From assembly GCF_003334315.1 (NCBI RefSeq), contig NZ_QOWR01000060.1: a stretch of DNA of 28,819 nt; one strand, written 5' to 3'. Of this stretch, positions 26,650-28,366 are shown one piece after another; positions within the stretch are counted from its first letter, which is position 1; every line of letters begins with the position of its first letter. The position numbers and the translations under genes were made by a program. The notes below the pieces were generated by a model. It was not told where the DNA came from and searched no databases. It was given only the letters and a program-made list of their open reading frames with translations. Source of the stretch: Escherichia coli. Its GTDB lineage: Bacteria; Pseudomonadota; Gammaproteobacteria; Enterobacterales; Enterobacteriaceae.

Positions 26650-27606
26650 ATGAACCCGATTGCAGTTACCCTACTCACCGGTTTTTTAGGCGCGGGCAAA
26701 ACCACCCTGCTGCGCCATATTCTTAACGAACAACACGGCTACAAGATTGCCGTGATTGAAAACGAATTCGGCGAAGTCTCCGTTGATGATCAATTGATTG
26801 GTGATCGCGCCACGCAGATCAAAACGCTGACCAACGGCTGCATCTGCTGTTCGCGCTCCAACGAGCTGGAAGACGCACTACTCGACCTGCTGGACAATCT
26901 CGACAAGGGCAATATTCAGTTCGATCGTCTGGTCATTGAATGCACCGGCATGGCCGATCCTGGCCCGATTATTCAGACCTTTTTCTCCCATGAGATTTTA
27001 TGCCAGCGCTACCTGCTGGACGGCGTGATTGCGCTGGTGGATGCGGTACATGCCGATGAGCAGATGAACCAGTTCACCATCGCCCAGTCCCAGGTTGGCT
27101 ACGCCGACCGTATTCTGCTGACTAAAACCGACGTCGCAGGCGAAGCAGAAAAACTGCGTGAACGCATGGCGCGCATCAACGCCCGCGCACCGGTCTACAC
27201 CGTTACCCACGGCGACATCGACCTGGGCCTGCTGTTCAACACCAACGGTTTTATGCTGGAAGAAAACGTCGTCAGCACCAAACCGCGTTTCCACTTTATC
27301 GCGGACAAACAAAACGATATTTCGTCGATTGTGGTGGAACTGGATTACCCGGTAGATATCAGCGAAGTTTCCCGGGTGATGGAAAACCTGCTGCTGGAAT
27401 CGGCGGATAAACTGCTGCGTTACAAAGGGATGCTGTGGATTGACGGCGAACCTAACCGCCTGCTGTTCCAGGGCGTCCAGCGCCTCTACAGCGCCGACTG
27501 GGACAGGCCGTGGGGTGATGAAACACCGCATAGCACAATGGTGTTTATCGGGATTCAGTTGCCGGAGGATGAGATTCGGGCAGCGTTTGCGGGGTTGAGG
27601 AAGTAA
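26650..27606 (+). CDS. yjiA: YjiA, COG0523-family P-loop GTPase (putative metal chaperone)
   Basis: ORF 26566..27606; start at the internal ATG with SD GGAGAG (MNPIAVTLLTGFLGAGKTTLLRHILNE...), 318 aa; Walker A GFLGAGKTT and the CxCC metal motif GCICCS. Confidence 0.92.
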   Translation: MNPIAVTLLTGFLGAGKTTLLRHILNEQHGYKIAVIENEFGEVSVDDQLIGDRATQIKTLTNGCICCSRSNELEDALLDLLDNLDKGNIQFDRLVIECTGMADPGPIIQTFFSHEILCQRYLLDGVIALVDAVHADEQMNQFTIAQSQVGYADRILLTKTDVAGEAEKLRERMARINARAPVYTVTHGDIDLGLLFNTNGFMLEENVVSTKPRFHFIADKQNDISSIVVELDYPVDISEVSRVMENLLLESADKLLRYKGMLWIDGEPNRLLFQGVQRLYSADWDRPWGDETPHSTMVFIGIQLPEDEIRAAFAGLRK

Positions 27607-27692
27607 TCGTGAAAGGTTGAGTGTAAAGCAGCTCAATGCCCCATTTAGCAGTGAGGGGGGAAACAGAACGACGTGCTCCCCTCCGCTAAGTT

Positions 27693-27884
27693 TTATTGCG
27701 CGTGAATACCTGGATCTGGCAAAAAATTGCCGCGTTTGGCGTCAGACCATGCTTCGCTACCAGAAGCAGGAATGTCGCTGTAATCAATGTCTTCGTCGGA
27801 TTTATTAACCAAAGCCATGAGTTCAGCTTCTTGCTGCACATCAAGTGTGTAGAGTGTGCCCCGTTTATGTTTAACCATGCTCAT
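27693..27884 (-). CDS. Hypothetical small acidic protein (63 aa) with a DEDIDYSDIP motif; possibly a remnant of a small antitoxin-like gene
   Basis: ORF MSMVKHKRGTLYTLDVQQEAELMALVNKSDEDIDYSDIPASGSEAWSDAKRGNFLPDPGIHAQ, 39 bp downstream of the 137-aa ORF on the same strand, with an AAAGG SD-like sequence upstream. No family assignment could be verified. Confidence 0.4.
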   Translation of the reverse strand: MSMVKHKRGTLYTLDVQQEAELMALVNKSDEDIDYSDIPASGSEAWSDAKRGNFLPDPGIHAQ

Positions 27885-27923
27885 TTATGACCAGAACCTT
27901 TACGATTTAATTATAAAGATGAC

Positions 27924-28337
27924 TTATTTCAGCCATCCAGGCACGTTATATTCTGAGACATTCTCAATGGAATATGCATCTCTCCTGTCAGAACCTTTCT
28001 TACACTTCAACTCATTGAACCCCCATTTACCCTCTCTATTGGAATAAAATACAGTATATTTATCGGTATTAAACCCGAAATATCTTTCATCCGGACGTGA
28101 AATATTCAACTCTCCACATTTAACCTGACTGCGCCATTCAAAATCTATGGTGCTTTTTAAAACGTAGTACGAAATATTCTCTACATTTTTTGAAGCAAAA
28201 ACTACTAAAATAGTAGATACTATAAATGCTCCGGCAAGTATAAATAACCTATACACACTTAATTTAGTCCCCAGAGTTAAAAAAGCAAAATAGATAATAA
28301 GTTGCATCAACATGAAGAAAATTAACAAAAAAGCCAT
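27924..28337 (-). CDS. Hypothetical membrane-anchored protein (137 aa; two N-terminal hydrophobic helices plus an ~85-aa soluble domain) in a very AT-rich segment
   Basis: ORF MAFLLIFFMLMQLIIYFAFLTLGTKLSVYRLFILAGAFIVSTILVVFASKN... followed by a Lys/Asn/Tyr-rich domain. GC content is far below the neighbouring genes. The start codon lies 30 bp from the IS1 IRR end, and IS1 transcription is oriented toward it. Confidence 0.5.
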   Translation of the reverse strand: MAFLLIFFMLMQLIIYFAFLTLGTKLSVYRLFILAGAFIVSTILVVFASKNVENISYYVLKSTIDFEWRSQVKCGELNISRPDERYFGFNTDKYTVFYSNREGKWGFNELKCKKGSDRRDAYSIENVSEYNVPGWLK

Positions 28338-28366
28338 CCCTTTCCAGAAATACTCAACCCATGGTG

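Follow-up and report, generated by a model that had tools for sequence, protein, structure and literature searches.

An AT-rich pair of open reading frames between yjiA and IS1 in Escherichia coli very probably lies at the left edge of an immigration control region that has decayed

The window analysed here is a stretch of 28,819 nt of E. coli DNA (contig NZ_QOWR01000060.1, assembly GCF_003334315.1), near the right end of which the GTPase gene yjiA is followed by a short interval, 27607-28366, and a copy of IS1 (Table 1). The gene yjiA is the conserved left anchor of the immigration control region (ICR), for which Sibley and Raleigh reportedly described, in 2004, cassette-like variation between yjiA and yjiN in enterobacteria. 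As the original prediction had it, the interval carries two ORFs on the minus strand, one of 137 aa (27924..28337) and one of 63 aa (27693..27884), and the locus is indeed the ICR: relatives free of IS1 hold type IB hsdRMS, symE and GmrSD at this site. The description of the interval as AT-rich is true of it as a whole, with a GC content of 38.9% vs 52.3% for the window. However, it is strongly AT-rich only in the part derived from a membrane-protein gene (34.3%, with a drop to 30-36% across 27900-28300), the small ORF having 45.8%. The interval had also been regarded as strain-specific. This view does not hold, since megablast of 27607-28370 against 5426 complete E. coli genomes found part of it in 513 genomes and at least 80% of it in 432 of the 5426. 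The last 1819 bases of the window are 99.9% identical to E. coli 13C1065T, in which RefSeq annotates both ORFs, as 'antitoxin' (WP_000063145.1) and 'hypothetical protein' (WP_001347556.1). The stretch 27607-27690 was considered as a sequence shared with other ICR types and dismissed, because the genome with the 84-bp match contains the same type IB cassette, cut further by ISKpn26.

Table 1. Features at the right end of the window, and IS elements found at the same locus in other genomes (window coordinates)
Feature	Position	Strand	Basis or remark
yjiA (GTPase)	26650..27606	+	Identical coordinates in the 13C1065T annotation; adjoins the cassette in reference genomes too
Cassette-specific spacer	27607..27722		No alignment to the 3' half of full-length brnA
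brnA remnant (brnA'), codons 1-54	27723..27884	-	76-78% identity to 100-aa PF14384 proteins; homology stops after codon 54
Spacer of 39 nt, membrane-gene stop to brnA' start	27885..27923	-	DNA alignment with the intact brnTA locus L004
mem322 3' fragment, codons 177-322 plus two bases of codon 176	27924..28366	-	Collinear with L001:12318-12760 (strain C5)
IS1 (IS1A family), right-end inverted repeat and insB	28367..28819	-	Sequence, ORF and annotation; the window ends within the element
IS1, independent truncation of the cassette in other genomes	27965		
IS1, opposite orientation, independent truncation in other genomes	27816		Inside the small ORF
ISKpn26, independent truncation of the cassette in another genome	27690		
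IS1, plain insertion	mem322-hsdR intergenic region of EC7518		

The origin of the 137-aa ORF is revealed by strain C5, with which the interval aligns end to end up to window position 28366, where the match stops. In C5 the ORF runs on into a 322-aa CDS (WP_000432646.1, hereafter mem322; L001 12318..13286), which is divergent from an hsdR of the EcoAI family (type IB); hsdM, hsdS, symE and yjiS come after this hsdR. The 137-aa ORF corresponds to mem322 residues 186-322, starts at the internal Met186 and differs from the C5 sequence by one substitution; residues 1-176 are missing from the window copy. Because the ORF continues into the 322-aa CDS in strain C5, it proves to be what the original prediction had named as evidence against itself, a fragment of a larger gene, albeit one that is itself uncharacterised. 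The ORF is not a gene of its own: it encodes the last 137 residues (43%) of a 322-aa membrane protein. Comparison of the junction across E. coli genomes gave the same picture, the 137-aa stretch being the end of mem322 beside hsdR in IS1-free relatives. The two predicted N-terminal transmembrane helices were confirmed as hydrophobic helices. The 82 aa behind them are soluble but, although said to be rich in Lys, Asn and Tyr, display no special richness (S8, K8, Y7, E7, R6, G6 and N6 in 82 residues). Of the full-length protein, the fragment keeps the last two transmembrane helices (TM6 and TM7) along with the conserved beta-rich domain at the C-terminus, in which two cysteines are invariant. 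The ORF would owe its existence to an accidental in-frame start within a truncated gene. Coverage of at least 80% for mem322 plus the intergenic DNA upstream of it was found in 405 of the 5426 complete E. coli genomes, where the gene is always divergent from type IB (EcoAI-family) hsdR.

The mem322 family (UniProt A0A2Y0KXF9 for the C5 protein) consists of uncharacterised inner-membrane proteins of Enterobacterales and is rare: 1.84 billion cluster representatives contained 29 matches at E <= 0.001. Identifiable hosts are Enterobacterales, except for one metagenome-assembled genome labelled Bacillota, the mem322 locus of which is essentially identical to that of E. coli. Values of dN/dS between intact alleles are 0.25-0.37, indicating that intact mem322 is under purifying selection; the allele of MS20673 is frameshifted. 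A first structure prediction based on 8 sequences was unusable (pLDDT 54.5), and an AlphaFold model based on a 19-sequence alignment reached a pLDDT of 84.6. The model has seven transmembrane helices and a C-terminal beta domain (residues 256-316), and the positive-inside rule suggests that the N-terminus is inside and the C-terminus outside. Conservation within the family is highest in the C-terminal domain: C259, C297 and the motif YFGFNTDKYTV are invariant in the family alignment, and a disulfide-bonded periplasmic domain would fit. Foldseek found nothing in the PDB at E <= 0.001; its top hits, TRP channels and ABC exporters, were rejected as fold relatives (TM-score of about 0.2). A search of PDB sequences with a profile gave no match either. 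Matches in AFDB50 were uncharacterised Enterobacterales proteins only. Likewise, the full-length protein has no Pfam, NCBIfam or PADLOC match beyond transmembrane-region noise, and searches of the window ORFs against Pfam, NCBIfam, PADLOC and PHROGs revealed nothing significant. The only match in PADLOC-DB 2.0, to ThsA (E = 0.0037), fell on hydrophobic residues 2-66 of the fragment and vanished when the full-length protein was used; it was set aside as compositional noise.

The loss of the mem322 5' part can be traced to IS1. As originally described, the terminal inverted repeat of the element (GGTAATGACTCC...) begins at 28367, 30 nt upstream of the ATG of the 137-aa ORF, and the transposase gene insB (28382..28759, minus strand) reads toward this ORF. 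The assignment to IS1 is based on the repeat, the insB ORF that follows it and the IS1A transposase annotated by RefSeq in 13C1065T, where the element measures 768 bp (L003). The junction in 13C1065T is identical to that in the window, and the far end of its IS1 abuts DNA located just downstream of gmrSD. The two IS1 flanks of 13C1065T map to MS20673 positions 12758, within mem322, and 21043, just past gmrSD. Thus, 8,284 bp are missing, namely mem322 codons 1-176, hsdRMS, symE and gmrSD, and the region is, as had been proposed, a remnant truncated by IS1, in which mem322 is cut at the junction and the restriction genes are deleted. The 9-mers flanking IS1 differ (CCCATGGTG vs CATCTGTCC), so that this is not a simple insertion; both signs of an IS-associated deletion were found, i.e. 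flanks that are non-contiguous in intact relatives and no target-site duplication.

IS1 mediates adjacent deletions and prefers AT-rich targets. The locus conforms to both properties, with non-contiguous flanks and no 9-bp duplication on the one hand, and a left junction within DNA of 31.7% GC on the other. The absence of the target-site duplication fits either of two mechanisms, an adjacent deletion caused by IS1 or recombination of one IS1 copy with another; nothing here is unusual with regard to classical IS1 biology, and the one-step and two-copy routes are not separable from sequence alone. An identical junction was found in about 24 complete genomes, most of which have at least 40 IS1 matches. 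Given that it is identical in all of them, these genomes would most simply represent one clonal lineage. In other strains, several independent events involving IS1 and an IS5-family element occurred within the same few hundred bases (Table 1). The AT-rich edge of the cassette is a recurrent IS target, and the locus is prone to decay.

The placement of insB had led to the proposal that the ORFs could be expressed from IS1 across an open frame. The frame upstream of the 137-aa ATG is open across the junction, as claimed, but for 28 codons only, until a stop within the IS1 sequence. These codons include no ATG, GTG or TTG, and the frame differs from that of insB; hence, an InsB fusion protein is impossible. 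No sigma-70-like promoter was found in 27500-28819, and expression driven by IS1 thus finds no support at the level of either a promoter or a translational fusion. A stretch AAAGGG abuts the 137-aa ATG directly, closer than the typical Shine-Dalgarno spacing. A terminator-like hairpin at 27643-27691, followed by GUUUUAUU on the plus strand (-29.7 kcal/mol, z = -2.05 in RNA folding), is probably the terminator of yjiA, a terminator scan reported a weak hairpin at 27938..27917, and Rfam had no match in the interval.

These observations bear on the possibility that the 137-aa product is made by read-through from IS1 and keeps or acquires an activity, e.g. as a surface or envelope factor that influences how phages adsorb, or as a dominant-negative mem322. 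The fragment does retain the best-conserved domain of the family with its invariant residues, it has an ATG and two helices that allow an N-out/C-out topology, insB is transcribed toward it, and the junction persists in about 24 genomes. However, of the seven transmembrane helices only two are left and the native promoter is gone, there is no promoter-like site between IS1 and the ATG of the fragment, the AAAGGG is closer to the start than usual and fusion to InsB is impossible. The persistence of the junction is most simply that of a single clone, and in other strains mem322 is truncated elsewhere or frameshifted. We therefore give this explanation hardly any credence. In view of the loss of the promoter and of five helices, the 137-aa product is most likely non-functional, although some activity may persist, because the retained part is the most conserved of the family and the two helices could still insert into the membrane.

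The 63-aa ORF had been likened to the N-terminal region of BrnA/DUF4415 proteins devoid of a DNA-binding part, and this resemblance was confirmed. Residues 1-54 are 76-78% identical to 100-aa proteins of the 'BrnA antitoxin family' (PF14384), with a common N-terminus MSMVKHKRG and the DIDYSDIP motif, and the C-terminal ribbon-helix-helix (RHH) half is absent. Beyond residue 54 the ORF reads LPDPGIHAQ, whereas BrnA goes on into its C-terminal half. These nine non-BrnA codons and the stop, located at 27693-27722, are supplied by the cassette-specific spacer. At the DNA level, homology to brnTA starts in the last codons of brnT (ATCGTAAAG), continues through brnA codon 54 and then ends. What is left of brnT upstream of brnA' are about the last 10-30 nt, within the 39-nt spacer, and the ~115 bp from the end of the brnA homology to yjiA are cassette-specific. 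An intact counterpart is found in E. coli GCA_012736985.1, where brnT (95 aa) and brnA (100 aa) occupy the same site beside yjiA, convergent with it, and are followed by an Mrr-family gene and hsd genes. DNA of brnTA is present in 2113 of the 5426 complete E. coli genomes, one copy per genome.

Both PMC5086665 and PMC11980606 cite Heaton et al. (2012) for the BrnT/BrnA prototype of Brucella abortus. The BrnT-BrnA complex has a 2:2 composition and acts as a repressor of its own promoter (PMC5086665), and the C-terminal RHH domain of BrnA mediates regulation of the operon (PMC11980606). Like genuine BrnA, brnA' has the same start, the DIDYSDIP motif, a site convergent with yjiA and an antitoxin segment known from PDB entry 7VD7. 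It differs in that the RHH half (about residues 55-100) is swapped for nine unrelated codons, and the window has neither brnT nor the brnTA promoter; the place of the overlapping upstream brnT is taken by an unrelated membrane-protein gene. PF14384 spans residues 37-93 of full-length BrnA, and the 63-aa remnant had no Pfam match even at E <= 10 and no NCBIfam match. The HMM searches (Pfam, PADLOC) suggested along with the original prediction provided no family for either protein, and the link to BrnA came from homologues. The 63-aa ORF represents a gene remnant and not a toxin-antitoxin system. No paper was found in the literature for the RefSeq accessions or for 7VD7.

Could the remnant nevertheless act as an antitoxin? 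7VD7 contains a 94-aa toxin nearly identical to BrnT of the E. coli ICR together with a 44-aa antitoxin fragment (BrnA residues 14-57), and residues 15-55 of brnA' align to that fragment (7VD7_B) with E = 3e-11. The toxin-contact segment is thus probably kept, which makes a predicted trans-neutralising role conceivable. A residual role of this kind is also conceivable because the 7VD7 segment is whole and none of the four alleles examined has a disrupted ORF. In its strongest form, this explanation holds that brnA' still works as an orphan antitoxin, serving for anti-addiction or immunity by neutralising BrnT that arrives on brnTA-bearing DNA or persists after cassette exchange, in the absence of RHH autoregulation. 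Besides the match to 7VD7 and the intact ORF, which is also seen in the clusters named 'antitoxin', it is in favour of this explanation that brnTA is common in E. coli; this makes exchange of the cassette against brnTA-bearing alleles plausible. Against it, brnA' has no promoter-like site, the native brnTA promoter and brnT being deleted, and the loss of the RHH half also removes the dimerisation domain. Its identity to BrnA of the E. coli ICR is only 76-78%, and it diverges about as fast as the neighbouring sequence (4.8% vs 6.1% between the window and MS20673). The dN/dS of 0.40 derives from nine substitutions only, too few to tell constraint from neutrality. Finally, IS1 cuts brnA' in other genomes, which suggests that it is dispensable. 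We consider a functional orphan antitoxin improbable; most likely, brnA' is a neutral relic that at most binds BrnT supplied in trans.

The two ORFs had been proposed to form a defence, abortive-infection or toxin-antitoxin cassette, or a minimal variant of one. Neither a conserved pairing nor a match to an effector family was found. In Salmonella enterica, mem322 (42% identity) lies between type IB hsdR and yjiA without a brnA remnant, and in E. coli the GC content of mem322 is 31.7% vs 45.8% for brnA' (49.7% for hsdR). In Klebsiella aerogenes, mem322 is again next to type IB hsdR but beside yjiR, and a full-length brnA is located on the far side of the hsd genes. Tblastn detected no BrnA or BrnT near the more distant mem322 homologues checked. 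The two ORFs are unrelated leftovers, not a cognate cassette: mem322 travels with type IB hsdR and not with brnA, the natural partner of which is brnT.

The context of the distant homologues was assessed from 12 loci of a genome scan, many other homologues being on contigs of 1-2 kb that offer no context. In Kosakonia and Proteus, mem322 homologues are near type I hsdR, and in Pantoea one lies beside Zorya ZorD. Others are next to integrases, near mdtM or in the uhp housekeeping context. Such a distribution fits mem322 being cargo of variable islands. The mixed neighbourhoods of the 12 loci are not enough to claim a defence role, and such a claim was rejected. A combined explanation would make intact mem322 an unrecognised accessory of type IB loci or other defence islands and, separately, brnA' an orphan neutraliser of BrnT; as a whole this is unlikely. 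In E. coli, Salmonella and K. aerogenes alike, mem322 is arranged divergently to type IB hsdR, which speaks for the accessory part, as do the homologues near type I hsdR, ZorD and integrases. The uhp contexts, the frequent frameshifts and IS cuts and the lack of a detectable function-bearing domain speak against it. Possible roles for such an accessory are sensing at the envelope and exclusion of phages.

Taken together, the comparisons very probably identify the interval as the left edge of a decayed ICR, with the two ORFs as independent leftovers of brnA and mem322. The proposed history has two steps. First, a type IB cassette consisting of mem322, divergent hsdR-hsdM-hsdS, symE and gmrSD would have recombined into an ICR that carried brnT-brnA beside yjiA. 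This event would have removed brnT up to its last few codons and exchanged brnA beyond codon 54 for unrelated DNA, leaving the 63-aa brnA' with neither a toxin partner nor an RHH domain. The resulting mem322/brnA' arrangement is common to about 500 complete E. coli genomes. This step and the order of its events are read from mosaic breakpoints only and are accordingly presumptive. Second, in the lineage of the window, IS1 has taken the place of about 8.3 kb (mem322 codons 1-176, hsdRMS, symE and gmrSD), as comparison with intact relatives shows.

A review of the ICR (PMC12707154) gives type IB as present in 11% of loci and names brnAT, symE/symR and rpn as toxin-antitoxin systems of the region. 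In the passages searched, it makes no mention of a 322-aa membrane gene beside type IB hsdR, and its text gave no match to the term 'membrane protein'. The window locus resembles the known ICR in its position directly after yjiA and in that its relatives hold type IB hsdRMS, symE, GmrSD, Rpn and brnA-type elements. Unlike a typical ICR, it has lost its restriction genes and retains edge fragments only. The locus thus represents ordinary gene decay in a known hypervariable region. It also illustrates that, within a defence hotspot, a pair of AT-rich ORFs that resist assignment and adjoin an IS element may turn out to be the debris of two unrelated genes. Two weak leads emerge from it, an uncharacterised membrane-protein family near type IB hsdR and a widespread truncated BrnA that contains the toxin-contact segment. 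For the organism, the effect of the rearrangement is the loss of type I and type IV restriction systems and not the gain of a new defence function: about 24 complete genomes have lost type IB restriction-modification, symE and GmrSD at the ICR, and the lineage with this junction may, as a predicted consequence, be more permissive to foreign DNA.

The 322-aa membrane-protein gene whose 3' part is kept beside yjiA (mem322, WP_000432646.1) belongs to an uncharacterised family with seven transmembrane helices and a conserved C-terminal beta domain in which two cysteines are invariant; the gene has a GC content of 31.7%, and no relatives were found in Pfam, PADLOC or PDB. A type IB hsdR is the divergent neighbour of mem322 in E. 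coli, Salmonella and K. aerogenes, and homologues in other Enterobacterales have type I hsdR, Zorya ZorD or integrases nearby. The E. coli type IB cassette of the immigration control region is also borne by a contig labelled 'MAG: Bacillota bacterium' (JAEWTL010000091.1), with 100% identity in mem322 and 99.8% in HsdR. This contig almost certainly comes from E. coli and was placed in that metagenome-assembled genome by mis-binning.

AFDB contains numerous partial proteins from Salmonella and Enterobacter under the name 'membrane domain protein', which suggests that mem322 is often pseudogenised. The allele of strain MS20673 (L002:12318-13286) carries a frameshift in its N-terminal third, and its annotation is a 'membrane domain protein' of 232 aa.

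Between yjiA and the mem322 fragment, the truncated 63-aa brnA' (BrnA-like part at window 27723-27884), present in about 500 E. coli genomes, retains almost exactly the part of BrnA found in PDB 7VD7, where a 44-aa BrnA fragment (residues 14-57) accompanies a BrnT homologue. We found no paper citing this entry, which appears to be unpublished. On the opposite strand, a hairpin that is probably the yjiA terminator overlaps the 3' end of the 63-aa ORF, taking in its final codons and its stop codon.

Features at the yjiA-proximal edge of the type IB cassette
Feature	Position	Strand	Remark
Intact mem322	L001:12318-13286		strain C5; portion kept in window, 27924-28366
Hairpin GCAGUGAGGGGGG...CUCCCCUCCGC, then GUUUUAUU	window 27643-27697	+	immediately 3' of yjiA
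IS1	window 28367
IS1	window 27965
IS1	window 27816
ISKpn26	window 27690
IS1	mem322-hsdR intergenic region		simple insertion

Comparison of window 27690-28366 with the equivalent positions in other E. coli loci and genomes (L007, L008, L017 and EC7518) revealed that the same AT-rich edge of the cassette, about 700 bp long, was hit by IS elements on at least five independent occasions across different E. coli genomes; these are the IS rows of the table, and most of them are accompanied by loss of hsdRMS.
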